From the NCBI GenBank assembly GCA_965116525.1, contig OZ220694.1, forward strand, positions 952,879 to 1,016,878: 64,000 nucleotides of DNA, written 5' to 3'. Under the pieces are notes generated by a model. That model worked only from the letters and a program-made list of their open reading frames with translations, searched no databases and was not told the origin of the DNA. The position numbers were made by a program, and so were the translations under genes. Each line of letters starts with the position of its first letter. The first letter of the stretch is position 1. Origin of the DNA: an uncultured candidatus Porisulfidus sp. (GTDB taxonomy: Bacteria; Pseudomonadota; Gammaproteobacteria; Poriferisulfidales; Poriferisulfidaceae). This document shows, piece by piece, positions 4,379 through 56,476 of the stretch.

Positions 4379-5151
4379 GACCGGGCGCTCCGGGCGTACC
4401 AGGCCATAGCCACGCCAGCCAAGGCCAGAGGGATGCAGAGAAGCTGACCCATGGTCAGCCAGCCGAACGCAAGGTAGCCGAGGTGGGCATCTGGCAGGCG
4501 CACGAATTCCACCGCGAAGCGCATAACGGAATAGCCCAGGGCAAACACTGCCGCGACCGCCCCGACAGCCCGGGGCTTCCGGGCGAACCACCAGAGAACC
4601 GCAAACAGGACGATGCCCTCCAGCGCCGCTTCGTACAACTGGCTCGGATGGCGGGGCTCGGGGCCTGCTGCCGGGAAGATCACCCCCCACGGCAGATCGG
4701 TAGGCCGTCCCCAAAGCTCGCCGTTGATGAAGTTTCCGATCCGGCCGAAAAACAGTCCGATTGGCACCATCGGGACGCAGAAATCGACGGTGGCCAGCCA
4801 TCCGACATTCAGTTTTCGTTGCCACAGCCAGATCGCGATCCCCACTCCGATCAGGCCGCCGTGGAAGCTCATCCCGCCTTCCCAGATGCGCAGAATCATC
4901 CAAGGGTCGACGAGCAGATAGTCCGAATGGTAGAACAGGGTGGAACCCAGCCGGCCGCCGATGATGGCGCCGAGGGCTCCGTAGAAAAGCAGGTCGCTTA
5001 CCTGTTCGGGGGTGACCGCCGTATGCACCCGGCGGGCGTGGCGGACGCCAAGCAGCCAGAACCCGGCAAACCCCAGCACGTACATCAGGCCGTACCAGTG
5101 GATATGCACGGGGCCTATCGCAAGGGCGACCGGGTCCCAGTCAAGAAGCAT
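4375..5151 (-). CDS. lgt: prolipoprotein diacylglyceryl transferase
   Basis: 258-aa polytopic membrane protein with [11 protein letters not shown]...GGRLG...[14 protein letters not shown] Lgt signature. Conserved lgt-thyA pair. Confidence 0.92.
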
Positions 5152-15904: not shown

Positions 15905-16584
15905 GCCCGAAGTCCAAATCCACGTCACGCGAGCTGTCCGCGGCCCGTGTCCAGGCGTGGCTCGAAAAACACCCCAATTTTCTGGCTTCCAACCCGGAGT
16001 TGCTGGAGCGGATGCAGCTGCCGCAGGATGCGGATGGGACCATCTCGTTTCAGGCGTATCAGGCACGCCGGCTGCGCGAACACAATGCGAAGCTGGAAGC
16101 TCTGTTCCAGATGGCCAACCGCAATCAGGAACTGATTGACCATGCCCTGATCCTTGCGGCGGAGAGCCTGCAAGACCGTCCGAACAGCTTGGGGGCCGCA
16201 ATCCAGGCACAGGAGAGGCGCCTGCTCCGCCATTTCCCGAACGCGGGCTGGGCAATTCGGTTGCGCCCGGAGATTCCGCGCGTTGCCGCCAAGTACAAGG
16301 TTCCTGAACACCCGCCCCTGGTGCGCGCGATCATGACCGTATTCCGAAAAGGGCCGCAGATCCTGGTGGATCGCGAGACCGTCGCGTTGCTGTGGCCGCG
16401 GTCGAAGGCGGATTCGGACACCCTGGTGATCGCGCCCCTGAAACGGCGGCGGCGCTACGGCATACTCTGCCGGGAGTTGCCGCCCGGTATCGATCGCGAA
16501 GGCGACACCACCCTGCTCCTGCACGTGGCCGATCTTACGGCGGCCCTGATCGATCGATTCTGCGAATCTCGGAGTGACCCGTGA
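15901..16584 (+). CDS. DUF484-family protein (YigA-like)
   Basis: 228-aa protein in the conserved dapF-DUF484-xerC arrangement. ATG at 15901 overlaps the dapF stop (ATGA). The ORF-track start at 15727 lies inside dapF. Confidence 0.7.
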   Translation: MSPKSKSTSRELSAARVQAWLEKHPNFLASNPELLERMQLPQDADGTISFQAYQARRLREHNAKLEALFQMANRNQELIDHALILAAESLQDRPNSLGAAIQAQERRLLRHFPNAGWAIRLRPEIPRVAAKYKVPEHPPLVRAIMTVFRKGPQILVDRETVALLWPRSKADSDTLVIAPLKRRRRYGILCRELPPGIDREGDTTLLLHVADLTAALIDRFCESRSDP

Positions 16585-17489
16585 GCGAACCTGCGCAGGG
16601 CACGGAGCTGTGGCTGGAGGAATTCCAGGCCAAATTGCGCTGGGAGCGCAATTACTCGACGCATACCGTCGCAGGCTACGCGAGCGATATCCGACAATTC
16701 GCCCGATGGCTCGATGAACAATCGATCAAGCCGGATCAAGTAAACGAGAGCGAGGTTCAGCGCTACGCCGCGCATCTGTTCCGACAGGGCCGGTCCCCGC
16801 GTTCCATCCAGCGCGTCTTGTCGGCCCTGCGCGGGTTTTACGATCATCTGGTCGCGACTCATCGCCTGGCCGACAACCCGGCGAGCGGGGTTCGCGCCCC
16901 GCGACAGCCTCGGACGCTTCCCAAGGTGCTGGATGTCGATGCGGTGATGCGCCTGCTCGACTCGAGGCCGGATGGTCCGCTGGGATACCGTGACCTGGCA
17001 ATGTTCGAACTCCTGTATTCCAGCGGCATGCGCCTTTCCGAGTTGGTTGGGCTGGACTGCAGCGATTTGGACATGGCGGCGGGAGAGGTCCTGGTTCTTG
17101 GTAAAGGACGGGTGCAACGCAAGCTCCCGGTCGGGCGCATGGCGTTGAAGGCACTGCGCGGCTGGCTTGATGTACGAGCAAAGATGGCGAAGCCCGAGGA
17201 AACCGCACTATTCGTCGGCCAGCGCGGAAAACGCCTGTCTGCCCGCAACGTGCAGTTGCGCCTGCGCCAGTTCGGATGCGCTTCGGGAAGCGACCAGGCG
17301 CTACACCCCCACCTGTTCCGCCATTCCTTCGCCAGCCATCTTCTGGAATCCTCCGGCGACCTGCGCGCCGTGCAGGAACTGCTGGGGCACCGCCGCATCA
17401 GCACCACGCAGATTTACACCCATCTCGACTATCAGCATCTGGCCCAGACCTACGATTCGGCACATCCGCGCGCACGGCGGCGGAACTGA
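16581..17489 (+). CDS. xerC: site-specific tyrosine recombinase XerC
   Basis: Phage-integrase N-terminal SAM-like domain plus C-terminal R...HxxR...Y (LGHRRISTTQIYTHL) catalytic motif. Position after dapF/DUF484. Confidence 0.9.
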   Translation: MSEPAQGTELWLEEFQAKLRWERNYSTHTVAGYASDIRQFARWLDEQSIKPDQVNESEVQRYAAHLFRQGRSPRSIQRVLSALRGFYDHLVATHRLADNPASGVRAPRQPRTLPKVLDVDAVMRLLDSRPDGPLGYRDLAMFELLYSSGMRLSELVGLDCSDLDMAAGEVLVLGKGRVQRKLPVGRMALKALRGWLDVRAKMAKPEETALFVGQRGKRLSARNVQLRLRQFGCASGSDQALHPHLFRHSFASHLLESSGDLRAVQELLGHRRISTTQIYTHLDYQHLAQTYDSAHPRARRRN

Positions 17490-17886: not shown

Positions 17887-18618
17887 ATGGCACGTTTTGG
17901 ATACAAGCAGGTTGAGCCGGACGAGAAAACCCGTCTGGTGAACGAGGTGTTCGAGTCGGTGGCGTTCCGCTACGACATGATGAATGACCTGATGTCGTTT
18001 GGGTTGCATCGCGTGTGGAAGCGGGTGTTCACGCTGCTGGCGCAACTTCGGGAGGGCCAGCGCGTTCTGGATCTCGCCGGCGGGACTGGCGACTTGGCCC
18101 AGTTGGTCCGCTCAAGGGTCGGTCCGGATGGACAGGTGGTTTTGTGCGACATCAGCAACGGCATGCTGATGCAGGGCCGGGATCGCTTGCTGGACGAAGG
18201 CCTGACGGACATTCCAGCCGTACAGGGGGATGCGGCGACCCTCCCGTTTGAGTCGGAGTCGTTTGACCGGGTCCTAGTCGGGTTCGGGTTGCGCAACTTC
18301 ACGGATCCCTCGGCATGCCTGCGCGAGATGCACCGGGTCCTGCGTCCCGGCGGGCTGGCGCTCGTCCTCGAGTTTTCCCAGCCGTCCGCCTGGCTGGAGC
18401 CGCTCTACCATGCATACACGCACCAGGCCGTGCCGAAACTTGGCGAACTCGTGGCCGGGGACCGCGACAGTTATCGTTATCTGGCCGAGTCCATCGCCGT
18501 GCACCCGGATCAGCGGACCCTACGCGAGATGATGCGCGCCGCAGGATTTGCGTCCTGCCAATACTTCAACCTGAGTGCCGGGATCGTGGCGATCCATCGT
18601 GGCACAAGGATTGACTGA
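17887..18618 (+). CDS. ubiE: ubiquinone/menaquinone biosynthesis C-methyltransferase UbiE
   Basis: VNEVFESVAFRYDMMNDLMSFGLHRVWKR...VLDLAGGTGD SAM-binding motif. Closing ...NLSAGIVAIHRG is typical of UbiE. Confidence 0.93.
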   Translation: MARFGYKQVEPDEKTRLVNEVFESVAFRYDMMNDLMSFGLHRVWKRVFTLLAQLREGQRVLDLAGGTGDLAQLVRSRVGPDGQVVLCDISNGMLMQGRDRLLDEGLTDIPAVQGDAATLPFESESFDRVLVGFGLRNFTDPSACLREMHRVLRPGGLALVLEFSQPSAWLEPLYHAYTHQAVPKLGELVAGDRDSYRYLAESIAVHPDQRTLREMMRAAGFASCQYFNLSAGIVAIHRGTRID

Positions 18619-18634
18619 GATAGTGATAGGCTCG

Positions 18635-19396
18635 ATGTTGCGCCAGGCAATTCTGGTGCTGCCGGTTCTTTTGGTGCTCTCGGCCGGCGGCGTTGCGCAT
18701 GCCGGAGAGAAGGGCTCTTCTTTCCATTGGGCGGGAGCCTACGCAGGCTTTTTTGCGGGTTCCGGACGAGTGGACAACCGGCTGATCGATCCTGCCGGCT
18801 TCGCGAACTGGGGCAATCCCGGCTCGGTGACCCGCCATGAGGATGCTGGCTTCGTCGGGGGTCTGCTGATCGGGAAGAAATTCGATCTTGGCAACATGTC
18901 GGTCCGGATCGAACTTGACGGCACCGTTGGGGATTTGGAGTCGGAAACCAATCAACTCGATCCTGTAGGGTTGGACGAGACGGCGGTGGCGGAGTTCCAG
19001 TGGATTACCACGGCCCGCGTCGGAATAGAGAAATCAATCGGTTCTGCGACGGTGTTCGTTACCGGAGGACTGGCGCTGGCCAGGATCGAAAATTCTGTCA
19101 CTGACATTGACTTCGGGGCAGATCGCCCCCCGGCAGTGGACCCGGACGATTCCTTTCGCGACCGGTCTACGGAAACCGGCTGGGTCATCGGGTTTGGCGC
19201 CGAAGTTCCCCTGACTGGTGTTTGGACGGTGCGGTTCGAGGGGCTCCATCTGGATTTTGGTCGGAGCGGTCACCGCGCGAACCATTCCGGAAACAATTCC
19301 TGCGGATCGGACGGCCCTCGGGAGCCCTGCCCGTACCGGGTCGAAAATGAACTTGATGTTTTTCGTCTGGCGATCACCCACCCGCTCGGGGGGTAG
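18635..19396 (+). CDS. outer-membrane beta-barrel protein (OmpA-N/OmpW-like family), with signal peptide
   Basis: Signal peptide MLRQAILVLPVLLVLSAGGVAHA, then alternating amphipathic beta-strand pattern with aromatic girdle residues. No family-specific motif recognised. Confidence 0.5.
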   Translation: MLRQAILVLPVLLVLSAGGVAHAGEKGSSFHWAGAYAGFFAGSGRVDNRLIDPAGFANWGNPGSVTRHEDAGFVGGLLIGKKFDLGNMSVRIELDGTVGDLESETNQLDPVGLDETAVAEFQWITTARVGIEKSIGSATVFVTGGLALARIENSVTDIDFGADRPPAVDPDDSFRDRSTETGWVIGFGAEVPLTGVWTVRFEGLHLDFGRSGHRANHSGNNSCGSDGPREPCPYRVENELDVFRLAITHPLGG

Positions 19397-19463
19397 CGAG
19401 GGTATCCGAATATACTAGTGTTCCGAGCATGCGTGCAAAGTTAAGCACGATTTTTTGGCAATC

Positions 19464-20360
19464 ATGATGCCTGATTCCTACCCTATTATCACGGTGAAGC
19501 CGGAATGGGTTTCGGGGCCCGAGGAAATGGGAAGTAAGACGAAATTCTGGTACAGCAATCTGGAAAGGCAGGAAGCAAATTGGCTTTTCAAATACCCGAA
19601 GCCAGGCACAGGAGAGCATTGGGCGGAGAAAATTTCTGAGCAAGTTGCTCATATCCTCCAGATTACGCACGCAAAGGTCGAACTTGCGGAATTTCAGGAT
19701 GAGCATGGTTCAGTAACGAAATCCTTTACTCGTGGGGAGAAAGACCTATGCCATGGGAATGAAGTATTGAGATGGATTGTTCCTGGCTACGATCCTGAGA
19801 AAAAATTCCATCAGTCGGCGCATACCTTGGAGAATATCTTTCAAGCAATGGAGAGAATTTTTATCTCTACGGAAGCAGCAAGATTTGCAAAAGCACGTAT
19901 TTCGGAATATATCGTGTTAGACGCGTTGGTTGGGAACACAGATCGACACCATGAAAACTGGGGCATTCTGCGCGAGCGAGCGGGCGATGGTTGGAGGGGT
20001 TTTGTGGCACCTTCATTCGACCATGCATCTTCATTAGGCCGGGAGCTTTTGGATGAACGTCGCGATAGGTTTTTGGCAGAGAGACTAGTCGGAGGATATG
20101 TGGAAAAAGGCCATGGCGGGATTTACTGGTCAGAAGACGAGAGGCGTGCTCCTAGCCCTTTGGAGTTGGTGCGTCGTGCGGCTCAACGCCACCCGGAGTT
20201 TTTCCAGGGAGCACTAAAGAAAACACAGAGATTGGATGAAAGTACCATGAAAGATTTGGTGAATCGCGTGCCTGATTCTTGGATGACCCCTTCGGCTCGC
20301 GAATTCGCTATCGAATTGATTCGCTATAATTTTAACCAGATGAGCAATCTCCTTTCATGA
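19464..20360 (+). CDS. HipA-like Ser/Thr kinase, C-terminal kinase-core only (HipT-like)
   Basis: Catalytic-loop motif VGNTDRHHENWG matches HipA_C GNTDDHxKNxS. Putative Gly-rich loop VSGPEEMGSKTKF. ~300 aa, lacking the HipA N-domains. The ORF-track start at 19455 is a TTG; the first ATG is at 19464. Confidence 0.7.
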   Translation: MMPDSYPIITVKPEWVSGPEEMGSKTKFWYSNLERQEANWLFKYPKPGTGEHWAEKISEQVAHILQITHAKVELAEFQDEHGSVTKSFTRGEKDLCHGNEVLRWIVPGYDPEKKFHQSAHTLENIFQAMERIFISTEAARFAKARISEYIVLDALVGNTDRHHENWGILRERAGDGWRGFVAPSFDHASSLGRELLDERRDRFLAERLVGGYVEKGHGGIYWSEDERRAPSPLELVRRAAQRHPEFFQGALKKTQRLDESTMKDLVNRVPDSWMTPSAREFAIELIRYNFNQMSNLLS

Positions 20361-21097
20361 ACACCAAAACCCTATTCCTGGCTTGGCAGGACAAGAACCG
20401 GCGCCAATGGTTTCCGGTTGGCAGGTTGGATGCGGATGTCAGTGCGTCGTTCTACCGGTTCCGCTATGTCGCGGGCGCACAACGGGCGCAAAAGGAAGCG
20501 AAATTTCCACTACTGCTCGAATTTCCGGAAGTACGCGAGGACTACAAGTCTGCGGAGTTGTTCGCACTTTTCAAGAATCGAATTATTGCGTCAGGACGCC
20601 CGGACCGCATGGAGTATCTGCAGAATCTTGACCTCAAGGAGGATGCGAACCCCATCGAAATCCTTTCGGCAAGCGGTGGACGTCGAGCCACAGACTTCTA
20701 CGAAGTCTTTCCAAAGATCGTAAAACAATCTGACGGGAGTTTTACCTGTCGTTTTTTCTTGCATGGCTGGCGACATGTGAGTCCGCATGCCCAAGAGCGG
20801 ATGAGGAGTTTGGAGCCAGATGAAGAATTGTACGTGACGCTAGAGTTAACTAATCCAGCGACAGGCTTGGCGGTTCAGATTCAGACGCAAGACTATGAAA
20901 TGATTGGTTGGGCTCCACGCTATCTTTTAAGCGACTTGGTGGCTGCGATGGCAGATTTCCGAAATTATTCCGCACGAGTTGTTCGTGTGAATCTGCAACC
21001 GGCACCGTCGAGACAACGAGTTTTAGTCGAAATGAGCGGCCGTTGGGTTGATCATGAGCCTATGAGCGGCGAAGATTTTGTTCCGCTTGCTGCATAA
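20357..21097 (+). CDS. HipA-N-terminal-like (HipS-like) domain fused to a C-terminal HIRAN domain
   Basis: The N-terminal half follows the HipA_N 'couple_hipA' pattern (L.L.W...PVGRL.....FYRF.Y...PLLLEFP...ELFALFKNRIIASG, EILSASGGRRATDF). The C-terminal half (LEPDEELYVTLELTNPATGLAVQIQTQDYEMIGWAPRYLLSDLVAAMADFRNYSARVVRVN) matches the HIRAN pattern (L.REP.NP.D..A..V......IGY.PR.LA.....SARVVRV). The start overlaps the kinase stop (ATGA). Confidence 0.5.
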   Translation: MNTKTLFLAWQDKNRRQWFPVGRLDADVSASFYRFRYVAGAQRAQKEAKFPLLLEFPEVREDYKSAELFALFKNRIIASGRPDRMEYLQNLDLKEDANPIEILSASGGRRATDFYEVFPKIVKQSDGSFTCRFFLHGWRHVSPHAQERMRSLEPDEELYVTLELTNPATGLAVQIQTQDYEMIGWAPRYLLSDLVAAMADFRNYSARVVRVNLQPAPSRQRVLVEMSGRWVDHEPMSGEDFVPLAA

Positions 21098-21253
21098 TCA
21101 ACCTAAAGACTTGAAATGTTATTTCGTACATTTCGCACTGAGGTTTTAATCGCTTCACTAATTTTGATAGTGCCATCCTGCACGCTGCCCTTCAGAATAT
21201 TTTGTAATCAGTTTTCGGGCACAGCCTAATTCTGTGCGGCTATCGTTGTCAAC

Positions 21254-23755
21254 ATGAATGACTACTACAAGATACTCCGTGTTTTTATTGCCTCTCCAAG
21301 TGATTTGAAGGAGGAACGAAAGGTAGTTCACGAAGAAATCGAGGAATTTAATCGATCTTGGGCAAGCGAATTCGGATATCGGCTTGAACCAGTTGGGTGG
21401 GAGGAGACCATTTCTGGCTGTGGAAGACCGCAACAACTCATAAACCAAGGCGTGGACCAATGTCATCTTTTCATTGGTATGGTTTGGAGGAGGTGGGGCA
21501 CACCGCCGGACAACGATGGAAACTATTCTTCTGGGTTTGAAGAAGAGTTTGATCGAATGATGAAGCGACGCGAGGAAAACGATCATCTTGAAGTTTCTCT
21601 ATTTCTCAAAAAAATTTCTAGTGAATGCAAGGAAGATCCTGACGAACAACTCAAACGAGTTCTAGAGTTTCGAGAAAAAATGAACGAAGAAAAAAAGATT
21701 CTCTATCAAGAGTTTGAAGAAGCACAAGACATGGCGATATTGGCGCGAGATAAAATCAGAACTTTTGTGAAAAAAGTCAAAGTGGCAGATTCGACTGATT
21801 CCAATCAAGCCAAAGAGAGAAGCCCTGACCTAGAACAACAGAATGAGACAAAGGAAGAACGTGATTCTTCTCTTATGCCTGAAAGCATTATTTTTCTTCG
21901 AGATTTGGTTGAGCGTGTTGGTCAGGAGGGTTCGATGGAAAGCCTTAATGCACCTGACATCGCCCGATTCCGCCTGTTGGCAAATTCGGTTTCAAAACCA
22001 GGCAACCATAAGTTAAGCCTAGGAGTTCACGATGCCAATATTCTTTACTTGCATCATATCAATGGCGGCCTGAAACCCGACAAACGAGAAATTATTTTCT
22101 TAACTAGATTGGGCTTGCATAAGCTTAAGAGCGAGAACGTGCCATTCTGGTGTTGGTATTCTGCAATGTTGGCCTCTGGCCCTGGTGCACTTTTGGCCTC
22201 GTCAATGCATGGTGTCGACGACAATGAGAAGATTGGGGCGATCAGAGTATTAGGCGCATTGGAACTTGATTGGCCAACGAACAAGAACTTGCCCCGGGGA
22301 AAAGTTCTAACTTTCTGGTTTTCTAAAGACTCGTCGGCGAAAGTAAAATCAGCCGCTTTAGGCTACCTTGCAACAATAGGCACGACAGAAGACTACTCTG
22401 TTGCCGAGGAAGAATACGGCAGGGAAGATCACCAGACTTCTCGTAAGGCACTTGAGTGCATGATTGCAATTCTCCTTAGAGCCGGATTAGAAGAAGAAGC
22501 CCAACAATTAGTTCTTGAATCACAATTTGAATCGTTGGACGCAAGCATATTGCAGGCAGTTTTAGAAGGCTTTGATCGCATGAAGCTAGCACTGTTGTTG
22601 ATGGGGGTGGAACACCCTATCTCCCAAGTGAGATTGCATGCATTAAATATTTTGCTTGAACGCAATGAGCTAAGCCAAGATTTAGCAGAACAATTGTGCA
22701 AAGACCGCGAAATTTCAATACGCGACTTGGCAATCAAGGCGCTTTTACAATTAGGTAAACCACTAAGTCAAGAGGAAATTAAGAGAATTTTAACGCCACC
22801 TAAAGCGCGGGTTCAGCGTAGCTTATTTAAAGCATTTGCTCCGGATGTGTCAGATAAACAGGCTGAAATGCTTCTTGCCCGCCATGAATGGGAAAGCTTG
22901 ATGAGGCTTTCTGAATCTGAGCTTACCGCGCAAGTTGAAGATGGCTTAATGTATGAGGAAGTAGCGTATTTTGCACGTGCAGAAAAATATTTTTCTCAGT
23001 ATGCAGGGGAATTGAGACGTGATGTTGATGACTCTTTTGGAGCATATTGGGAAGAGCGGCTTCGACGGACAGAGATTGCTTTTCGTGACCACCCTGCTGA
23101 ACTTGAGGAGATGGTAAAAAAGGACAAGGAGCTAGAAAGCTTTCACCGGAAAGAACTTATAAGACAAGGATTAGATGTCCTATGTAGAGTGGGCGAAAGC
23201 GAGGACCTGCATAGAATTAGGGAACACCTCAATGAAGGTGACCTGGAAGTATCTAGGTTGGATGTGAAGTACCTAGCGAGACATGGCAAATGGAAGGACA
23301 TTCCACTACTGACACAGGCGACTGTTCCATTTGAGGGGATTGCCGAAGGTTTGACCACTTCAATGGCGCGTGAAAAAATTCAGACAGAGATTGCAGAGGC
23401 TGCTCTTAACATGAGTTATGGGCACAATCTATCAAAACTGTTTTCCCTGGATATGCCTGTGGACATCTTAGTGAAAATGATTGATTTGTGCCCCGAATCG
23501 AAATTCTCGGAAATTCCGGATGACGTTCTTCTGAAACTCTTTGATAATGAATTGGCGGACTTTCGCAAGGCCGCGTCCATTAAAGCAGTTCAGACTTTTT
23601 CAAGAGAGCGAATCAAATCAATTCTTCACGCATATGCTACTAGTGACCAGCCCCACTATTACAATGTCATTCACTGGTTGGATGTGGGCGTGTCTATGTC
23701 TCGCAATGAGGCAATGAAGGTGGTGGCTACAGCTTCGGGGGACTTTCCCTCTTAA
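21254..23755 (+). CDS. 833-aa protein: N-terminal DUF4062-like (TIR-like) domain plus long HEAT/ARM-type alpha-helical repeat region
   Basis: The N-terminal segment YKILRVFIASPSDLKEERKVVHEEIEEFN fits the DUF4062 hallmark (FISS..DL.eER). The remaining ~700 aa are Leu/Glu/Lys-rich repeats with HEAT-like units (VRLHALNILLE, IRDLAIKALLQLG). No P-loop or nuclease motif seen. Lowest-GC part of the window. Confidence 0.55.
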   Translation: MNDYYKILRVFIASPSDLKEERKVVHEEIEEFNRSWASEFGYRLEPVGWEETISGCGRPQQLINQGVDQCHLFIGMVWRRWGTPPDNDGNYSSGFEEEFDRMMKRREENDHLEVSLFLKKISSECKEDPDEQLKRVLEFREKMNEEKKILYQEFEEAQDMAILARDKIRTFVKKVKVADSTDSNQAKERSPDLEQQNETKEERDSSLMPESIIFLRDLVERVGQEGSMESLNAPDIARFRLLANSVSKPGNHKLSLGVHDANILYLHHINGGLKPDKREIIFLTRLGLHKLKSENVPFWCWYSAMLASGPGALLASSMHGVDDNEKIGAIRVLGALELDWPTNKNLPRGKVLTFWFSKDSSAKVKSAALGYLATIGTTEDYSVAEEEYGREDHQTSRKALECMIAILLRAGLEEEAQQLVLESQFESLDASILQAVLEGFDRMKLALLLMGVEHPISQVRLHALNILLERNELSQDLAEQLCKDREISIRDLAIKALLQLGKPLSQEEIKRILTPPKARVQRSLFKAFAPDVSDKQAEMLLARHEWESLMRLSESELTAQVEDGLMYEEVAYFARAEKYFSQYAGELRRDVDDSFGAYWEERLRRTEIAFRDHPAELEEMVKKDKELESFHRKELIRQGLDVLCRVGESEDLHRIREHLNEGDLEVSRLDVKYLARHGKWKDIPLLTQATVPFEGIAEGLTTSMAREKIQTEIAEAALNMSYGHNLSKLFSLDMPVDILVKMIDLCPESKFSEIPDDVLLKLFDNELADFRKAASIKAVQTFSRERIKSILHAYATSDQPHYYNVIHWLDVGVSMSRNEAMKVVATASGDFPS

Positions 23756-23870
23756 GAATCCTGTCAGTGACCAAGAGAGCCAGCAAGTTACGAACTGCCA
23801 CATTCCGAAAATCAAGAAGAAACTTGCCATAATAGTATTACTCCGCCAGTGAGAGCATCGCTGGCCCGAT

Positions 23871-23896
23871 GCCTCCTCCGGGAGGCGTTTCTTTTT
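23871..23896 (+). terminator. intrinsic terminator (GCCTCC-TCCG-GGAGGC + TTTCTTTTT) closing the islet
   Basis: Perfect 6-bp GC stem with tetraloop followed by a U-tract. Lies between convergent genes. Confidence 0.7.
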
Positions 23897-23928
23897 AAAA
23901 TTTAAGATTGAGGCCTTTCGGTCAGTGG

Positions 23929-24957
23929 TTACCCGCCGGGCAGGATGATGGCGGGCTTTGACAGTCCACGCTTGGCGCTTCTCTCCGAGGATTCGTCCAC
24001 CGTAACTCCCAGAAAAGTCCCGCCGTTCCGCCGCGTCAGTTCCCGCATCAATCCCGCGAAGCGGCTGGTGGTGTCAGCGTACTTGGGATCGATCTTCTCG
24101 ATCTGCGTCCGGGTAAAGAATCCGACCGCATGAATGCGGACCTGCCGCTTGCCGTCTTGATGGTTGAGGTCGTCCACCGTGTCGATGACCTCTTGGATCG
24201 ATTCGCCGGTGTACTCGTCGCCGAAAATGTACAGGCTAATCTTGTCGGACTTCATGCGAAACCGCTTGATAGCTTCCAATATCCCCTCGACCGGGCTTGA
24301 GTTGCTGTAGGAGTGCCAGGAATCGAAACGCTGCAGGAGGACCTTCCTCCGTGCAGGCGTGTCTGGAATCCAACGTCCCCGGTAGCCGCTGAACATGTAT
24401 GAACCCATGTCGTTCATGACTTGGAGCCCGCGCACTTTCGGGTAGGCATCCAGCAGGGCCACCAGTTGTTGTTTGGCGGCTTCCCAAGCGAACCGCTTCA
24501 TGCTGCCGGACGTATCCACGATGAAAATGATGTATTCGCTGTCGGCCGGGATCCCGCCGATCACGTCGGGCTTGGACGCGGTCAGGTCCAGCCGCCGCAT
24601 TTCTGCGTTGAGGCTTTGCAGCGCGGTTTTCAGGTCTGCCTCGATCAGGGCTTGCGCCTTGGCGCTGGCGTTCGCCTGTTGCGCCTCCTCCACGGCCTTC
24701 CGGTCTTCCTGAAGTTTTTCCTCCTGGGTGCGCACCCGGGCCTGCTCTTTGAGGCGCTCGGAGGCCAGGCCGGCCTGAACCTGCATCACGCGTGCGAGTT
24801 GCTCCTGCAGTGTCTCGATCTGGGCCTGCAGGTCTTCGACCGGTTCGCCCACGGTGTTCTTGGTGATCAGGATCAGCAGCACCATGGCTCCGAACCCACA
24901 GCTGATCACGTCGAGGAACGACAGGTGGTTGTCGGACCGCCGACGGTAGCGCCTCAC
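23929..24957 (-). CDS. ExbD/TolR-like single-pass TM protein with coiled-coil and C-terminal vWA domain (paralog B)
   Basis: N-terminus RRRSDNHLSFLDVISCGFGAMVLLILI mirrors the ExbD/TolR TM helix with the conserved Asp (P[LF]IDV[ML]LVLL). A long Gln/Glu-rich coiled coil follows. The vWA MIDAS motif DTSGS (IIFIVDTSGSMKRF) is present. Confidence 0.7.
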   Translation of the reverse strand: MRRYRRRSDNHLSFLDVISCGFGAMVLLILITKNTVGEPVEDLQAQIETLQEQLARVMQVQAGLASERLKEQARVRTQEEKLQEDRKAVEEAQQANASAKAQALIEADLKTALQSLNAEMRRLDLTASKPDVIGGIPADSEYIIFIVDTSGSMKRFAWEAAKQQLVALLDAYPKVRGLQVMNDMGSYMFSGYRGRWIPDTPARRKVLLQRFDSWHSYSNSSPVEGILEAIKRFRMKSDKISLYIFGDEYTGESIQEVIDTVDDLNHQDGKRQVRIHAVGFFTRTQIEKIDPKYADTTSRFAGLMRELTRRNGGTFLGVTVDESSERSAKRGLSKPAIILPGG

Positions 24958-25997
24958 GGCCAGTCCTCCGCAGGGGCTAGGAACTGCCCGTCGGTTTGCA
25001 TGGCGAACCCCCAGTAGGCACCGGCCGCTGCCGGATCGCCCTCAAGCGGAAGCAAAACGATGTTGAACGGTGGACCCGCGATTCCTTTCGTCGCCGAATG
25101 GAAGAACTCCATGCGCTGGGAGGGGCTGACCCGGTTCTTCTTGAACCAGGATTTCCCTTGTGTTGGCAGGCCGTCCGTAATCAGATAAACCGCATCCGGC
25201 CTGGGCTTCATCCGGGCGACCTTCGCGAGGGTCGTATCCAGACGGGTGCCCCCTGAGGGAACCCAGCCCTGTACCGCCGCGATCACCTCTTCCATCCGCT
25301 TCTCGTCTTTCGCCTGCAGCCATCCGCTTTTCGGCAGCGCCGGCGTCGCCGTGGTACTGAAGCCCCAGACCTGGTATTGCGCCTGCTCCGGCAGGTGCGC
25401 GAGAACCCATTCGAAGATGGAGCGGGCCCAACGCCACTTGTAGCTCTCGATCTGGTACTTGATCGGAAGAAACTTGTTGCGGATGATCGAGGCGATGCGC
25501 TCGTCCTGCATGCTGGCCGAGCGATCCAGCAGGATCAGGATACGGCGTCCCTCGACCCGAAAACCAGCCACGTACTGACGCTGGCCTTCTCCCTCGGTCG
25601 CCCTCAACTGCTTGCTTTTCTTTGCCTCTTGAAGTTTTTGCTTCTGCTTGCGCAACTCCTTTTCCAGCCGAACCGTATCAGACGCTTGCGGTTGGCGGGC
25701 GCGGAGTTCGGCCTGAGTGGTCATGGCGGCCACGCGCTGCTGCGCCAGGCTTTGCAGTTCGCGCCGCAACTGTCTTACCTGACGCTGATGCCCGGCGATC
25801 AGTTCCTCCTGTTCCTGGATGGATTGCTCCAGCAGTTGCAGGTCTCCTTCGCCGCTTTCCGATGCCTGCGCCAGCTCAGTCAGGTTGTGGTCGATGATCA
25901 GGAACAGCAGAACCGCGGCTCCCAACCCGCAAGACATGACATCCAAAAAGGCCAAGCCGAACGGATTCAGGAAACGGTTGCGTCGACGCCTGGACAT
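24954..25997 (-). CDS. ExbD/TolR-like single-pass TM protein with coiled-coil and C-terminal vWA domain (paralog A)
   Basis: N-terminus RRRNRFLNPFGLAFLDVMSCGLGAAVLLFLII with the TM Asp. Coiled coil (QLRRELQSLAQQRV...). vWA MIDAS motif DRSAS (ILILLDRSASMQDE). Same architecture as the downstream gene, indicating tandem duplication. Confidence 0.7.
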   Translation of the reverse strand: MSRRRRNRFLNPFGLAFLDVMSCGLGAAVLLFLIIDHNLTELAQASESGEGDLQLLEQSIQEQEELIAGHQRQVRQLRRELQSLAQQRVAAMTTQAELRARQPQASDTVRLEKELRKQKQKLQEAKKSKQLRATEGEGQRQYVAGFRVEGRRILILLDRSASMQDERIASIIRNKFLPIKYQIESYKWRWARSIFEWVLAHLPEQAQYQVWGFSTTATPALPKSGWLQAKDEKRMEEVIAAVQGWVPSGGTRLDTTLAKVARMKPRPDAVYLITDGLPTQGKSWFKKNRVSPSQRMEFFHSATKGIAGPPFNIVLLPLEGDPAAAGAYWGFAMQTDGQFLAPAEDWP

Positions 25998-26909
25998 TCA
26001 AAAAGAGAGGGCCATGCAGCGGTGGGCCTGTTCGTCTTCCGGAAGCGTGGCAGCCAAGTCGGGGTAAGTTTCGGGCGCAGGATTGCTACAGCAGGGCAGG
26101 CCCAGCCCTTGCTCCGGCAGCGGCAGCGCCTGTGTCAATGGGGGCAGCAGCAAAAGCTCCAGTTCCTCCGTATCGAGAGCGACTTCCGGCCAGCGGGCCT
26201 GGAAGATTCTTTCGTCCAGCGTCACGAGCCGGGAGTCCAGGCGGAGTTGTATCTGTTCGGGCTTCTCGGCAAAGGCCCGGCGCATCTGCCCGAACAACTG
26301 CTCGCGGTTTGCCGCGAGATTACGGTGTATGTCGAAGCGGTGCTGGGTCGCGAATGCCTCCGCGACATTCTCTATCCACTGGACGAAGAGGTGGTAGAAC
26401 CCGAAATCTCCGTATTCCCGGACCGATTCCAGCCGTGCCTGGCCCGGCTGGATGTCAATGGTGCTGATCCAGCTTCGGCTGCGTCCCAATTCTATGATTC
26501 CGTAACGTCCGGGCGAGAGATCCCGGGCTGCCAGCAGCGCGGTCGGGAACACGCCGCGGGGCGTATAGCCCAAGGCTTCCAATACGCCCAGCAGAGATTC
26601 GAGCCGCGGTCGCCCGATTCCTCCACTTACCGAAAGATCGACCGGTCCCCCTCCTTCCGGCAGGAATTCCTGCAGTTGAAAATACGCCAGATCGATGTAT
26701 GACGGGCTTCGGCCTTCTTCCGGCTCTGGAGCTTCGAGATATTCGTTGTTTTCGCTGCCGGTATGTTTCGGTTGCAGCTGTTCGCCGGCTTCTCCTCCGA
26801 ATTGCCAGCCGGCCTTCGCGTCATGGCGGGCGATGCACCACTCGGTCTGCCATTCGGCGCCGTTGGGTTGTGTCAGCGCGTAGCTGTCGATCCTAAGCAG
26901 CTGGGTCAT
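25998..26909 (-). CDS. hypothetical cytoplasmic protein co-operonic with the MotA/ExbB-like gene
   Basis: No TM segments and no recognisable motif. Start chosen at MTQLLRIDSY; the ORF track extends to 26969. Overlaps the stop of the upstream gene. Confidence 0.45.
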   Translation of the reverse strand: MTQLLRIDSYALTQPNGAEWQTEWCIARHDAKAGWQFGGEAGEQLQPKHTGSENNEYLEAPEPEEGRSPSYIDLAYFQLQEFLPEGGGPVDLSVSGGIGRPRLESLLGVLEALGYTPRGVFPTALLAARDLSPGRYGIIELGRSRSWISTIDIQPGQARLESVREYGDFGFYHLFVQWIENVAEAFATQHRFDIHRNLAANREQLFGQMRRAFAEKPEQIQLRLDSRLVTLDERIFQARWPEVALDTEELELLLLPPLTQALPLPEQGLGLPCCSNPAPETYPDLAATLPEDEQAHRCMALSF

Positions 26910-27798
26910 CTGTCCGCGTCCGCTCCCGCAGGTAACGCAGCAAGTGGTGCTGGCAATGTTCCTGGGCATCCAGCACCAGCGACTCTTGGGCTTCCTGGAG
27001 TTTATGCAGCAGCAGCATGATGAACAGGCTGATCAGCAGGGCCACGAAAGTTGAGTTGAACGCCACCCCGAGGCTTTCCGTCACCGGGCCGATGTTGCCG
27101 CGCGTGGCTTCCTCGGCCTGCCCCAGGGCCGCGCCGATTCCGCGCACCGTCCCGATGAATCCGAGCGACGGGATAGCCCAGGTCAGGTAGCGCACCAGCG
27201 ACAGTTCGGTGTCTTGCCGATCCGACTCCATTTCGCAGCTCGCCTTCATGGCCGCGGTGGCATCCGACACGGAATGCGTGGTGAAGAAGCGATCCAGGCA
27301 GGTATCGGCGGCCCGATACAGCACGGTGCTGCCGTAGCCTTGCATTCGCGCGTGCTCGCGGACGTCGGTGAAGCGCGCCCGGTCCTGTGCCTGAGGCAGG
27401 ACCAGGTCGGTTTCCCGGGTTTCCAGAAAGCTTTCCTCGTCATGCCGGCCGCGCAGGCTCAACAGCCTGCGCGCGAAGCGCAGTTTCAGCAGTTTCATCC
27501 ACATGATGGCGAGCGCCCAGAACAGGGCGACAAAGCAGGCTTCCTGCTCGTAGTCCTTGACGATCACGGCAATTCGCGCCCCGAGCGTCGGCGGTGCTAT
27601 TTCGGTCTGCTCCTCGGCGACAGCCTGGCGTTGCAGTTCCTCGTAGGCGACCGGCCGCACCACCAGTTCATAGGCTGCATGCACCACCACGAACGACAAT
27701 GCCAACGCCAGCAATTGCCAGAACACCTCGTGTTCGCGCCAGTTTTCGGCCAGAGTTGTCCACTTAGATGTCACTGGGCATGTCCACGGCTTCGTCAA
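26893..27798 (-). CDS. MotA/TolQ/ExbB-family proton-channel protein
   Basis: C-terminal IPSLGFIGTVRGIGAALGQAEEA....IGPVTESLGVAFNSTFVALLISLFIMLL matches the MotA_ExbB signature (LGLLGTV.G...F.....A........IA.AL..T..G). N-terminal TM helix plus a long cytoplasmic loop. Confidence 0.75.
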   Translation of the reverse strand: MTKPWTCPVTSKWTTLAENWREHEVFWQLLALALSFVVVHAAYELVVRPVAYEELQRQAVAEEQTEIAPPTLGARIAVIVKDYEQEACFVALFWALAIMWMKLLKLRFARRLLSLRGRHDEESFLETRETDLVLPQAQDRARFTDVREHARMQGYGSTVLYRAADTCLDRFFTTHSVSDATAAMKASCEMESDRQDTELSLVRYLTWAIPSLGFIGTVRGIGAALGQAEEATRGNIGPVTESLGVAFNSTFVALLISLFIMLLLHKLQEAQESLVLDAQEHCQHHLLRYLRERTRTDDPAA

Positions 27799-27988
27799 GG
27801 GAGATGGTTTCCTTCGGAGTCAGTTGCTTGAGCGTGATCGACGGGATTTCCTGCTTGAGGTCCTCTTCGGTCAGGATCTCGATAATCTCCCGGTCCTCCT
27901 CATCTTCTCCTGCCTGCGGCGCAGGGGGCTCTTCGGCCCATGCCAAGGCCGTCGCCGCGAAAAGGGGCATTAGCCAGAGCCGCCTCAT
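27764..27988 (-). CDS. small secreted acidic protein (signal peptide)
   Basis: 74 aa, signal peptide MRRLWLMPLFAATALAWA, then a highly acidic sequence. Overlaps both neighbours in the operon. Confidence 0.4.
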   Translation of the reverse strand: MRRLWLMPLFAATALAWAEEPPAPQAGEDEEDREIIEILTEEDLKQEIPSITLKQLTPKETISLDEAVDMPSDI

Positions 27989-29820
27989 GGCGAATCCAGG
28001 TAGTAGGCCAGCCGGAATCCCACATCGTCCTTGGGATCGCGGTCGTAGCGGCGGCTGCTCAGGCTCAACTCCTTGCGCCCGCTGTCGCGCCAGCCGAACC
28101 CCCGGATGACATAGTATCGGCCGCTGGCTTCACCCAGCGGATTGACCCGCTCCGTTTCCGGGCGCGCCGAGATCCGCAGTTTGTCGAGAAACACGTCGTG
28201 CATCCATTCCGCCACGTTGCCCGGCAAATCATACAACCCCCGGGCCGAGGGCGGAAAGCTCCCGACATCGGCACTGACGGCATGCCCGTCGTTGTATCCC
28301 TCCAATACGGGCTGCACGATGTCGGCGGCAGAAGCATCCGCTAGATTGCCGAAGCGATTCGGAGGCGGCATGAAATCTCCCCAGGCGTACCGCTTTTCGG
28401 AGCGGGTCAGCCAGACCCACTCGGCCTCGCTTGGCAGGCGGTACCCAGTCGCGTTCGCGTCGAATCCCTCGATCCGTCCGTCGCGCACCCGGTAGAACGG
28501 CGAGACGCCCGCCTGTTCGCTCATCCAGTTCGCGAAGAGCGCCGCATCCGTCCAGCTGATCCGTACGACCGGTTGGCTTGCTCGACCCAGTCGCTTGCCG
28601 AAAACCTCTCCGGAGTCATGTCCGGCCTGATAGCGTTGGTACAGGGCGTTGGCGACCTCCCTGTCCATGATCGCAAACGGCCGCGTCAGGCGCACCGGGA
28701 TACGGCGACGGGTGGTCGCGATCTCGAACGAACCGCGAGGCTGGAACTCAATGAAGGCCAACCCGAGATCCTGCTCGTGCTTCTGGCGCCGGGATTGTTC
28801 GACTTTCGCCTGTGATTGCAGGACTGCGAAAAGTTGCTTCGGCGCATCGGGGTGCGGCACCACGACATACTTCTCGGATATGTAGCCCGGCGCGGAGACT
28901 TCAATGGTGTGCGCCTGCTGAGACAGCCGCAACTGACGGCGGAGTTCCACTCGCCCGTCAACGCGAACCGTCGCGTTGGCCGGGGTCGGCCACAGTTCAA
29001 GGGTGCCGGTGCGGGGGGCCAAAGTGGCTGTGTGGCTTTGCTGGCCGGATTTCAGCTTCAAGGTTTGACGGTTCGGGGTATGGCCGGGGAGCAGCAGAGC
29101 GACCTCCACCTTGGTGTCCGGCGTCAGCGCGATCTGTTTCGGGGTGTGGCCCCGCCAGGTGCCATCAATCAATATGTCCGCGGCCTCAGGCGTACTGGAA
29201 ATCGTGAGCAAGGCGGGCTTTGCGACTTTCTTGAGTGGGATCTCGATCTCGGTCAGTCGCCCGTATCCTTCAATTTCCACCGTCTGCCGGTGCGTCTCGA
29301 AACCTTCCACGCTGACCCGCACAACATGATCACCCGGAGAGAGGTCTTCCAGTGTTTCGCCGATCCTTCCCGTGTGTTCGCCATCCACCCGGACTTCTCC
29401 TTCGGTTTCGGGTGTCGTAGAGACCCGGAGTCTGCCCGGGAGGGGTTCCAGGGTCACCTGCACGGTGCGGGGTGCGTCCCCGCCCGCCTCGAATTCCACC
29501 TGCCGGGAGCGATAACCCTCTGCCGCCACGCTCGCGGTGTGTCGGCCCCGCCAGAGCAAAGCCTGTCCGCCCACCATCACGTGTGGGCTCTCGACATGTA
29601 CCGCGGCCTCTACAGGGTCGGTCTCGAAGTTGATTAACTGTGCTTGTTCCGTGGCGTACCAGGCGCCGGCCGTCAGTAGCACCAGGAGAAAAACCACCAG
29701 CCCTGCCCCCCGAAAACGTGGCGGCGACGATCGACCCCGGCGTCCCTTCCGCTCGGGAGGTTGGTAGGGACGGGCCTGAACCGGCTCGTGGTCGAGAATC
29801 ACTGGATCGACTCCGTGCAC
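27985..29820 (-). CDS. membrane-anchored protein with tandem PEGA domains and C-terminal formylglycine-generating-enzyme (FGE-sulfatase/SUMF1) family domain
   Basis: N-terminal TM (LVVFLLVLLTAGAWY). Repeated PEGA-like units (VRVDGEHTGRIGE, ILIDGTWRGHTP, VRVDGRVEL). C-terminal RISWTDAALFANWMSEQAG...YRLPSEAEWVW...GNVAEWMHD...GFRLA is the FGE-sulfatase fold signature. Confidence 0.7.
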   Translation of the reverse strand: MHGVDPVILDHEPVQARPYQPPERKGRRGRSSPPRFRGAGLVVFLLVLLTAGAWYATEQAQLINFETDPVEAAVHVESPHVMVGGQALLWRGRHTASVAAEGYRSRQVEFEAGGDAPRTVQVTLEPLPGRLRVSTTPETEGEVRVDGEHTGRIGETLEDLSPGDHVVRVSVEGFETHRQTVEIEGYGRLTEIEIPLKKVAKPALLTISSTPEAADILIDGTWRGHTPKQIALTPDTKVEVALLLPGHTPNRQTLKLKSGQQSHTATLAPRTGTLELWPTPANATVRVDGRVELRRQLRLSQQAHTIEVSAPGYISEKYVVVPHPDAPKQLFAVLQSQAKVEQSRRQKHEQDLGLAFIEFQPRGSFEIATTRRRIPVRLTRPFAIMDREVANALYQRYQAGHDSGEVFGKRLGRASQPVVRISWTDAALFANWMSEQAGVSPFYRVRDGRIEGFDANATGYRLPSEAEWVWLTRSEKRYAWGDFMPPPNRFGNLADASAADIVQPVLEGYNDGHAVSADVGSFPPSARGLYDLPGNVAEWMHDVFLDKLRISARPETERVNPLGEASGRYYVIRGFGWRDSGRKELSLSSRRYDRDPKDDVGFRLAYYLDSP

Positions 29821-54467: not shown

Positions 54468-54955
54468 GAGTTGGGTGGGCCAATTGCGGAATTTTCGGTT
54501 TCGGATTGCTGTTGCTGCCAGTATTTAAACACTATCGGGGGAATTCCAAGCGATTCCGCGTCTTCGGCAGTCATGGTCTGCAGGCGTTGTAGGGTGCCAG
54601 CGACAAAGCCCCCGCGGGCTGGAGCCGGCAAAAGGGTCCGGATGCGTTCCGTGAGAAGGAGGGATAATGTCTGCCCGCATGCGGCATCGCGAATTGCTTC
54701 GCGCAGCAGGGCCTGCTGCAGCGCATCGAGCGTCTCGTCCTCGACTCTCGGGTCCACCTCCTGCGGGGTTGCGATCCGGTATCGCCTTCCTTTATTGGTG
54801 CCGGTGACTTCGACCTGCCCTTCATCGCACAATGCGAGCAACCAGCGGCGTAAGGTCCGGTCATTAACCTGGAATCCCTCACGAAGTTCGGATATCAGAG
54901 CAGGATGTTCTAATTTTCTTAGATAAGATAGCAATTTACGGTGCTCAAGCCGCAT
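54464..54955 (-). CDS. winged-helix DNA-binding protein (putative transcriptional regulator)
   Basis: N-terminal LLSYLRKLEHPALISELREGFQVNDRTLRRWLLALCDEGQVEV...RYRI is wHTH-like. Co-directional with and 131 nt downstream of fic. Overlaps the GATase start. Confidence 0.5.
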   Translation of the reverse strand: MRLEHRKLLSYLRKLEHPALISELREGFQVNDRTLRRWLLALCDEGQVEVTGTNKGRRYRIATPQEVDPRVEDETLDALQQALLREAIRDAACGQTLSLLLTERIRTLLPAPARGGFVAGTLQRLQTMTAEDAESLGIPPIVFKYWQQQQSETENSAIGPPNS

Positions 54956-54962
54956 ATGTATT

Positions 54963-55014
54963 GTCCGATATATGTCCGATAATAGGATAATTATAAACTA
55001 TATTATATCGGACA
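54963..55014. promoter_or_regulatory. operator-like repeats upstream of the wHTH gene: TGTCCGATA x2 direct (11-bp phasing) plus a perfect inverted copy TATCGGACA
   Basis: ATGTCCGATA...TATCGGACAT are exact reverse complements separated by 24 bp of AT-rich DNA. Lies in the 131-nt gap between the fic stop and the wHTH start. Confidence 0.5.
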
Positions 55015-55086
55015 TTTCTTTAAGATAATTTTGGGTTGCTTGAGATTCCCGTAAATGCTAGGGACGCAAAAATTTTCCGCGCGATT

Positions 55087-56436
55087 TCAGCTCGATAAAT
55101 CGCTGATTTTTTTGCTCAGGTTTTCAGCCGGAAAAAAAACTGTCGCTCTGCCTCTCCGGTTCCCCTGAACAAGTAGTTCGCGCCCTTCTAAATCAAGTAG
55201 ATCTGCCCGCGCTGTCGCGTAAGCGACCCCATGGCTTGTTTGATGGGACCTAAAGGTATAGCCATCACTATTCCCTCGAATCGCATGGCTGAGTAGCGCT
55301 AACTGCCTATGGTTGAATTGCCTGACACCTTTTAGTCGTTGCTCCAGGTCTTTCGCCTGTTCAATTTTTTTGTTCAGATATTGCTCTAAATCGGCAATAG
55401 ATGAAATGATGACCTTTAATTGATGCGCAATAAAGTATGTTAAATCGTTCTCATCGGTTTCCGAATATAAATAAGCGTAAGCATACCGTGCAGGAGCCTT
55501 CTTTATATTCCTTGATATAGAGATACATTCGAACAGCCAATAATTCTGCTTGAGCATCGACCAGTAGAACAATGCGCGCGCCAACCTTCCATTTCCGTCT
55601 TCGAACGGATGATCGAAACCGATCCAAAAATGCAAAAGAATAGATTTGATAATGGGATGAATGAAAGTTGGGGCCGTGTGTTCGTCGTTTGCGAATTCAC
55701 ATAACTCCTTGATCCGGCCGGGGAGTTGATCTGCAGGCGGAGGGGTGTGCAATTTTCTGTTTCTGGCATCAAATACCCCCACCCTTACATCATCACTCGT
55801 TTGCAGCTTTCCTGCCGCCTCAGCATCTTCCAGTGTTTGGTCGGTGACAATCCTGTGCAAGTCTAAGATAAGTTCGGGAGTCAGTTTTTCGCTCTTTATC
55901 TCCCTGACAACATTCATGGCCGCATAATTGTTAAGGATCATTCGCTCATGCTGGTTTTTGGGCCTGCGTCCGGATCTCAGCATATTTGACGCAATCTTTC
56001 GGGACGTCGACGCGCCTTCTAGTTGGCTTGATGTGATTGCTTCCTCGATAAGAGAGCTGACAATATAGCGATTCCTTGTCTCTGGATTTGTAACTTGCTC
56101 CGATATGGCAACCTGGCCTGTGGCTTTACTGTCAATTTCGTGCAGCATCTCTAGTACTGTATCGGGCATGCAAAAACTAAAGTGCGTCCCCCTCGCGTCT
56201 TTTAGGGGAATTCTCTTTCTCAATTGAGCACGTGCCATTTTTATTCCCAACCACCAAAGATCGTGGTTGAGGCCTTCAGGAGGTTTTCTATATTTCAATT
56301 CGGCCCAGTGTAAGTATTTTCCTTTGATTGTGGGCAGGGTTGTGACGTCAGGCTGTAAAAACAGCTGGCTCAAATCCTTAGGATCAGCTCTCCCTACGAT
56401 GTCTGATATTGAGGGGGCGTTTTGCGGCCTTCTCAT
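55087..56436 (-). CDS. Fic/DOC family protein (putative AMPylase), intermediate GC
   Basis: Canonical Fic motif HPFEDGNGRLARAL. N-terminal helical extension and C-terminal wHTH-like tail. GC lower than flanking genes. Confidence 0.85.
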   Translation of the reverse strand: MRRPQNAPSISDIVGRADPKDLSQLFLQPDVTTLPTIKGKYLHWAELKYRKPPEGLNHDLWWLGIKMARAQLRKRIPLKDARGTHFSFCMPDTVLEMLHEIDSKATGQVAISEQVTNPETRNRYIVSSLIEEAITSSQLEGASTSRKIASNMLRSGRRPKNQHERMILNNYAAMNVVREIKSEKLTPELILDLHRIVTDQTLEDAEAAGKLQTSDDVRVGVFDARNRKLHTPPPADQLPGRIKELCEFANDEHTAPTFIHPIIKSILLHFWIGFDHPFEDGNGRLARALFYWSMLKQNYWLFECISISRNIKKAPARYAYAYLYSETDENDLTYFIAHQLKVIISSIADLEQYLNKKIEQAKDLEQRLKGVRQFNHRQLALLSHAIRGNSDGYTFRSHQTSHGVAYATARADLLDLEGRELLVQGNRRGRATVFFPAENLSKKISDLSS

Positions 56437-56476
56437 GGCATCTCCGCAACTTTTTCTGGCGACTCAATCATAGCAT

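Follow-up and report, generated by a model that had tools for sequence, protein, structure and literature searches.

Two catalogued conflict modules, hipIN and a DUF4062-HEAT gene, probably share a low-GC cargo site in an uncultured gammaproteobacterium

A 64,000-nucleotide (nt) stretch of contig OZ220694.1 from an uncultured candidatus Porisulfidus sp., referred to here as the window, contains a low-GC islet at 19397-23928 that is filled by three co-directional open reading frames (ORFs) on the + strand: hipI, encoding a short HipA-family Ser/Thr kinase; hipN, encoding a protein that joins a HipS-like domain to a HIRAN domain; and a third gene (gene 3), encoding a DUF4062 domain followed by a HEAT-like solenoid. 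A first-pass annotation had taken the three genes for a single novel module unlike any named system. Instead, hipI and hipN correspond to the PADLOC candidate PDC-M03, also described as hipIN, and gene 3 falls within the DUF4062 TIR-like family; by sequence, both belong to module types that are already catalogued. We favour, with a probability of roughly 0.75, the reading that the low-GC stretch is a small cargo site holding two independent conflict modules, hipIN and gene 3. The finding is mainly a correction, in which an apparent unnamed three-gene system resolves into two module types, both catalogued, in one cargo slot. The related proposal that these genes are conflict or defence cargo rather than metabolic genes is upheld, as are the domain assignments and the foreign composition.

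The genomic contexts of the two parts carry this reading. Gene-3 homologues were surveyed at 80 genome loci with up to 8 kb of flanking sequence; neither hipI nor hipN was found within 8 kb (0/80), and no family recurred as a gene-3 neighbour in more than 4 of 82 loci. The converse search found no gene-3 homologue in 80 hipN metagenome loci (0/80), 31 of which extend 2.6 kb or more downstream. In cultured isolates, gene-3 homologues stand alone between housekeeping genes (polA, aconitase, leuS) or lie in integrative elements. Furthermore, in three relatives that share the dapF-xerC-ubiE-OMP (outer membrane protein) ... vWA-MotA neighbourhood (L006, L172 and L173), OMP-hipI-hipN is followed directly by the vWA operon. 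An empty site, with the OMP gene abutting that operon, had been suggested as a comparison; these relatives lack gene 3, but hipIN is still present in them. Because the two parts fail to co-occur in either survey and relatives carry hipIN without gene 3, the three genes probably do not form one system. Among relatives, the hipI-hipN-gene 3 order of the window is shared only by L001 and L002, and we attribute the adjacency to a slot downstream of hipN that accepts cargo, rather than to mutual need. In another relative, L005, a Gp49-type gene occupies the gene-3 slot, and the gene-3 homologue of that genome is found 640 kb away, with PIN, IS21 and AbiEii genes next to it. The L005 slot holds three small genes in all (L005 8734-9761, - strand), one of them assigned to the Gp49 family (Pfam E 5e-7), which we take to be a HigB/RelE-like toxin family; they may represent a different cargo of toxin-antitoxin (TA) type.

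The history of the locus, traced by nucleotide identity in 150-nt bins between the window and L006 or L001, separates the same two parts. Against L006, the closest relative, core genes are 95-98% identical and the OMP gene 73-81%, hipI and the HipS-like half of hipN are 96-98% identical, the HIRAN half is 72-77% identical, and gene 3 is absent. Against L001, core genes are 81-85% identical and hipIN 49-72% (53-63% in the HIRAN bins, 20737-21036), whereas gene 3 and its leader reach 90-97% nucleotide identity, except for a leader bin at 84% and one interior bin at 81%; the bins across the leader span (21037-21336) are 84-91% identical. Overall, gene 3 is 91% identical to its L001 counterpart, compared with ~60% for hipIN. 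Since gene 3 is closer to that of L001 than hipIN and the core are, it has moved horizontally as its own cassette, with the leader at 21098-21253 (+) travelling as part of it, as indicated by the bin identities to L001. The cassette is bounded on the left by the conserved last codons of hipN and on the right at ~23826-23840, just before a shared terminator, a pattern that fits transfer by homologous recombination at a hotspot.

By comparison, hipIN, or hipN alone, occupies the site in every relative examined, down to ~77% core nucleotide identity. Thus hipIN is an old resident and only gene 3 looks recently acquired, so that the description of the region as an inserted islet calls for qualification. 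At this site hipIN has a GC content of 0.46-0.51 in L005, L006, L172, L173, L174 and the window, whereas the hosts have a GC content of 0.61-0.66; no drift toward host composition has taken place, despite a residence predating divergence to ~77% core identity.

All segments are under purifying selection, with ratios of nonsynonymous to synonymous divergence (dN/dS) of 0.07-0.24 (0.16-0.19 for hipI). The HIRAN half of hipN stands out against L006 in its synonymous divergence (dS), which is 1.28 with dN/dS of 0.13, compared with dS of 0.10 in the rest of the module, and we therefore interpret it as an allele replacement. In-situ positive selection on HIRAN was considered and rejected, given dN/dS of 0.13 and saturated dS of 1.28. 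The recombination breakpoint lies at ~20735, at the HipS/HIRAN boundary inside hipN, and L005 and L006 share a HIRAN allele other than that of the window.

The compositional contrast described in the first-pass annotation is borne out. GC is 0.462 across 19397-23928 and 0.608 in the rest of the window; 500-nt segments vary with a standard deviation of 0.039 outside the region, and all 41 of 41 segments inside it fall at GC 0.41-0.52. GC and third-position GC are 0.48/0.48 in hipI, 0.51/0.53 in hipN and 0.44/0.42 in gene 3, compared with 0.60-0.63/0.67-0.79 in flanking genes. The flanks are as that annotation described them, namely an OMP beta-barrel gene upstream and a convergent vWA-vWA-x-MotA_ExbB operon downstream. 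A stem-loop scan placed a terminator at 23868-23899 (+), between the islet and the convergent operon, with a stem-loop at 23868-23889 followed by a T-run. The identical sequence occurs in L006, L005 and L001, whether gene 3 is present or absent, and the terminator therefore belongs to the site and not to the islet.

On the upstream side, sequence reading delimits an islet leader before hipI at 19397-19454 (+), with a -10-like TATACT at 19411-19416 and an inverted repeat, CGTGC-N8-GCACG, at 19432-19449 that was flagged in the stem-loop scan. The leader block TCCGAATATACTAG...GTGC..AAGCACG is common to the window, L006, L005 and L001, and in L172 and L173 it is replaced by a different -10-like block. 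This leader is a putative promoter or operator. A promoter and terminator scan of the islet returned counts no higher than in shuffled sequence, and for that reason we draw no promoter conclusions from the scan. As had been reported, no integrase, tRNA or obvious direct repeats flank the islet: the 64,000-nt window has no tRNA, and searches for flanking direct repeats or att sites gave short chance matches only. The single tyrosine recombinase nearby is encoded 2 kb upstream of the islet, at 16581-17489; this gene is xerC, a core gene that belongs to a dapF-DUF484-xerC cluster, has host GC and is 98% identical in relatives. With core xerC as the sole nearby recombinase, integrase-mediated insertion was rejected.

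Profile searches upheld the domain calls of the first reading, with HipA_C, HIRAN, DUF4062 and HEAT_2 all scoring above Pfam gathering cut-offs; no NCBIfam family matched any of the three islet proteins. The kinase gene hipI (19455-20360, +), a putative toxin gene, encodes 301 amino acids (aa) from a TTG at 19455; relatives use the ATG at 19467, for a product of 297 aa, and this ATG is likely the true start. HipI consists of the core kinase only, without the HipA N-subdomain 1. It matches Pfam HipA_C at 52.6 bits (E 6.3e-14; gathering cut-off 30.5) and PADLOC PDC-M03A (PDLC04345) at E 7.5e-84, with residues 9-297 aligned to positions 2-299 of the 302-position profile. When 25 homologues are combined into a profile, it matches the HipA-like kinase CtkA (3akj) at E 1.6e-11, to which HipI is closer by sequence than to HipT or HipA (E 0.26-0.84). 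Invariant in these homologues are G26, K28 and K30 of the Gly-rich loop, K46, the catalytic loop D163-R164-H165..N168 and the metal-binding D189-H190; CtkA can be aligned with them over both the catalytic loop and the FDH motif.

The second gene, hipN (20357-21097, +; 246 aa), overlaps hipI by 4 nt. Its N-terminal half (aa 1-126; 20357-20734) is a HipS-like domain, predicted to be the kinase-neutralising part; this HipA-N-like assignment, already made from the sequence, is sub-threshold by sequence search and confirmed by a fold match to HipS. The C-terminal half (aa 127-246; 20735-21097) is a HIRAN domain by both fold and Pfam (25.5 bits; gathering cut-off 24.7), predicted to bind DNA ends or single-stranded DNA (ssDNA). 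HipN matches PADLOC PDC-M03B over its full length (E 2.1e-78). The PADLOC search that had been suggested thus matched defence candidates, with full-length agreement for PDC-M03A/B; for gene 3 only the N-terminus aligned, to PDC-S60.

The pairing of the two genes is nearly obligate. In 67 of 80 metagenome loci hipI lies directly upstream of hipN, and most others are too short to tell. About nine metagenome loci carry hipN without a recognisable kinase upstream. Orphan loci of this kind include L094, L120, L121, L123, L140, L155, L156 and L160, and several unrelated orphan hipN genes adjoin type I restriction-modification (RM) hsdR/hsdS-like genes. At the site orthologous to the islet, L174 and L175 precisely lack hipI and keep hipN; in L174, a relative from a TARA metagenome, 36 nt (4965-5001) separate the OMP stop from the hipN start. 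Loss of the kinase with hipN retained is what a toxic kinase would lead one to expect; it is consistent with a TA relationship and no proof of one. No hipN was found in the viral contigs searched. A pair of HipA_C and HIRAN genes that likewise overlap by 4 nt adjoins an integrase in L176 (PQ189286.1, 3018-4732), one of a set of 14-kb Vibrio cyclitrophicus prophage-like elements classified as Vinavirales (Tectiliviricetes), and PHROGs 8728 and 8026 correspond to the Vibrio HipA_C and HIRAN genes. From these gene matches, the hipIN-type module also travels on mobile elements.

Comparison with described systems places the first two genes in the hipIN type. The hipIN module was described bioinformatically by Gerdes, Baerentsen & Brodersen in 2021 (PMC8262856) as a short HipI kinase with HipN, a HipS-like domain fused to HIRAN. 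The window copy shows no architectural difference from hipIN/PDC-M03: it shares the short core kinase followed by a HipS-HIRAN gene, the bicistronic layout and full-length profile matches. Its particulars are that it is chromosomal, is fixed at a single site throughout an uncultured lineage of Gammaproteobacteria and has its HIRAN half swapped by recombination. HipBST (Escherichia coli O127; Legionella HipS/HipT) differs, since the window has no HipB helix-turn-helix (HTH) gene, its HipS is fused to HIRAN and its kinase comes first; no HTH gene is found among the three ORFs of the islet or their Pfam matches, and the tricistronic HipBST layout does not apply. HipAD/DS-6, reported with DefensePredictor (PMC13092281), likewise pairs a HipA-family kinase with a non-HipB partner and has validated anti-phage protection that depends on the kinase catalytic residue; its partner carries DUF3037 and DUF1829, whereas that of the window is HipS-HIRAN.

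What hipIN does for its host bears on an alternative that we consider possible but unlikely, namely that it is a selfish addiction or persistence-type TA module with no anti-phage role, kept by post-segregational killing or drift. Such a view draws on the classic TA layout, the occurrence of orphan antitoxins, its residence at a single chromosomal site in lineages that share 77-96% of their core sequence, the treatment of hipIN as a TA module in its 2021 description (PMC8262856) and the lack of any defence assay of hipIN in the searched literature. Against it, PADLOC selected its 145 PDC candidates, this family included, because members are embedded in RM, BREX or DISARM loci; hipN is indeed seen beside type I RM genes, prophage-like elements carry the module close to their integrase, one HIRAN allele has been replaced by another, and kinase-dependent defence has been validated for HipAD/DS-6, another HipA-family pair. 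The two interpretations are not mutually exclusive.

Gene 3 (21254-23755, +; 833 aa) begins with the DUF4062 domain (aa 1-185; 21254-21808), a TIR-like predicted NADase effector (hydrolysing nicotinamide adenine dinucleotide, NAD+), followed by a long 'stalk' helix. The remainder is dominated by a C-terminal all-alpha HEAT-like solenoid (aa 209-828; 21878-23737), a predicted sensor or auxiliary region recognised by Pfam, AlphaFold2 and Foldseek. Pfam scores are 41.1 bits for DUF4062 (gathering cut-off 24.7) and 28.4 bits for HEAT_2 (E 2.1e-6; gathering cut-off 27.7). The AlphaFold2 model comprises five beta-alpha units, a long helix, a disordered linker and the all-alpha solenoid at 209-828; the fold of the N-domain matches TIR, in agreement with the TIR-like character first attributed to it, and the best Foldseek matches of the solenoid are the PP2A A-subunit and karyopherins. 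Across 32 homologues, F11 and the motif S93-G-F-x-E97-E98-F are invariant.

The gene-3 family is large, with 739 representatives at 50% clustering (E<=1e-30), nearly all colinear and 800-835 aa long, and is found in many phyla. In PADLOC, residues 6-181 match positions 3-176 of the 906-position PDC-S60 profile, which is not a full-length match. Full-length homologues in PLSDB amount to one plasmid copy at 27% identity, and viral contigs yielded relatives in 5 cases, at 23-29% identity. Homologues support the 833-aa start over the public gene call (P0002), which is 732 aa long. That call begins at residue 102, omitting most of the DUF4062 domain (window 21254-21556), and its precomputed Pfam list contains HEAT_2 only.

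We infer from analogy that gene 3 is a predicted DUF4062 TIR-like NADase of the single-gene type with a HEAT-type sensor region. Two preprints, on Swarozyc and Evangelion, describe DUF4062 as a TIR-like NADase in single-gene abortive-infection defence with a variable auxiliary region (bioRxiv 10.64898/2026.05.01.722283; 10.64898/2026.06.25.731849). In the Swarozyc protein KpSwz, E97 is catalytic and the phage portal activates the system (bioRxiv 10.64898/2026.05.01.722283). Gene 3 resembles Swarozyc in its horizontal spread and in being a single gene whose product carries a TIR-like DUF4062 domain with a conserved catalytic Glu region at the N-terminus, then a long helix and a C-terminal auxiliary region; the auxiliary domain of KpSwz, however, is a small HTH/winged-helix that binds the phage portal, whereas that of gene 3 is a ~620-residue HEAT solenoid. 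Evangelion (Eva01-04) has F11 and an E-Y catalytic region; its Eva01 lineage also has a Q/W/E motif and is enriched on plasmids, and truncation of Eva01 at L177 abolishes defence (bioRxiv 10.64898/2026.06.25.731849). Gene 3 shares with it the DUF4062 core, the diversified auxiliary region, a predicted role as one-gene defence and F11; Eva01 is short and plasmid-borne, whereas gene 3 is chromosomal and 833 aa long, with E97-E98-F99 in place of E-Y. An alternative in which gene 3 does not deplete NAD+, its TIR-/NDT-like domain instead making a signalling nucleotide, hydrolysing nucleosides or acting as a scaffold with HEAT as adaptor, strikes us as improbable, given the invariance of the catalytic-Glu region across the family, the NAD+ depletion by both tested bacterial DUF4062 lineages and the absence of a partner gene to receive a signal.

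A mechanism can be proposed for each module. In hipIN, HipN would supply in trans the HipS-like domain that HipA bears at its own N-terminus, and this domain would hold HipI inactive as HipS restrains HipT, by analogy with HipBST and HipA. Characterised Hip kinases target aminoacyl-tRNA synthetases. Once restraint is lost, HipI would phosphorylate an essential translation factor, and the resulting growth arrest would abort infection or stabilise the element. HIRAN is likely, by analogy, the input domain, and the turnover of HIRAN alleles fits a sensor role. The preferred trigger would be engagement by HIRAN of free 3' DNA ends or ssDNA arising from phage replication or DNA damage; turnover of HipN is an alternative. 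In gene 3, the solenoid may, to judge from Swarozyc and Evangelion, recognise a phage component, and recognition would rearrange or oligomerise the TIR-like heads, leading to NAD+ hydrolysis and aborted infection.

Several points weigh against reading the site as two independent conflict modules with these functions. The 156-nt gap between hipN and gene 3 contains no terminator-like site, so that read-through from hipIN into gene 3 may occur; the gene order is also common to the lineages of the window and of L001, and co-transcription or some functional synergy is therefore conceivable. The metagenome survey was seeded on HipN and so counts orphan hipN genes, not orphan kinases. The searched literature contains no experiment on any hipIN or PDC-M03 member, HipI toxicity, neutralisation by HipN, the HipI target and any anti-phage effect are argued from analogy, and HIRAN may be either a DNA sensor or an operon autoregulator in place of the absent HipB. 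For gene 3, the difference from tested DUF4062 systems extends across the whole auxiliary region, and its motif reads E-E-F, not the E-Y of Evangelion.

That the three genes form one integrated, one-operon system, in which HipI and HipN regulate or are backed by the DUF4062-HEAT NADase, is very improbable: co-directionality, the terminator-free gap and the same gene order in L001 and L002, whose hipIN is only ~60% identical, speak for it, and it is opposed by the 0/80 and 0/80 co-occurrence in unrelated loci, the flank-sharing relatives that keep hipIN without gene 3, the homologues standing alone among polA, aconitase and leuS, and the cassette itself, which from the hipN 3' end to just before the terminator is 84-97% identical to L001 per 150-nt bin and fits recombination. 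Even less likely is a functional juxtaposition in this lineage, with hipIN and gene 3 co-transcribed and acting in a layered or coupled manner; in such a version HIRAN would sense phage DNA ends and free HipI, and phosphorylation by HipI or loss of HipN would also license the NADase. Were this so, a single pathway would join a DNA-end sensor with a protein kinase and a TIR-like effector.

The surroundings of the islet include further variable features. The OMP beta-barrel gene directly upstream (18575-19396, +) has a slightly lowered GC of 0.60 and is hypervariable, with 68-73% aa identity to relatives in which flanking core genes are 95-98% identical. In L005 an HTH gene on the opposite strand takes its place. 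Possibly the OMP gene is a hotspot of phage-receptor or surface-antigen variation next to the defence slot. The convergent operon downstream (23929-29820, -) encodes vWA, vWA, an unknown gene, MotA/ExbB and a PEGA-FGE-sulfatase protein and is core in all relatives. PADLOC returned no credible defence match for the flanking OMP, vWA, MotA and PEGA genes. A second low-GC stretch lies at ~54600-56500 (GC 0.41-0.49), just upstream of mnmG. Its ORF at 55087-56436 (-) encodes a protein of 449 aa that Pfam assigns to the Fic/DOC family (E 2.1e-16), and Fic proteins likewise count as candidates for defence or toxin functions. Genes elsewhere in the window include dapF-DUF484-xerC, ubiE, ubiB, polA, yidC and mnmG. 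Among named organisms, the closest MnmG relatives reach only 61-63% identity and all belong to Gammaproteobacteria. From this gene content and these matches, the host looks like a deep-branching, uncultured gammaproteobacterium. The related metagenome-assembled genome contig L001 is labelled 'Candidatus Poribacteria', a label that we therefore regard as doubtful and probably a binning or labelling artefact.

Within this lineage, a single orthologous site presents natural variants of hipIN that are intact, have the HIRAN half swapped, have the kinase deleted with hipN kept, or are followed by differing downstream cargo. This variant set could guide work on HIRAN sensing and on the antitoxin role of HipN. 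Gene 3, in turn, represents a large DUF4062 family with a HEAT solenoid as its predicted sensor, an architecture that lies outside those covered in the 2026 DUF4062 studies.

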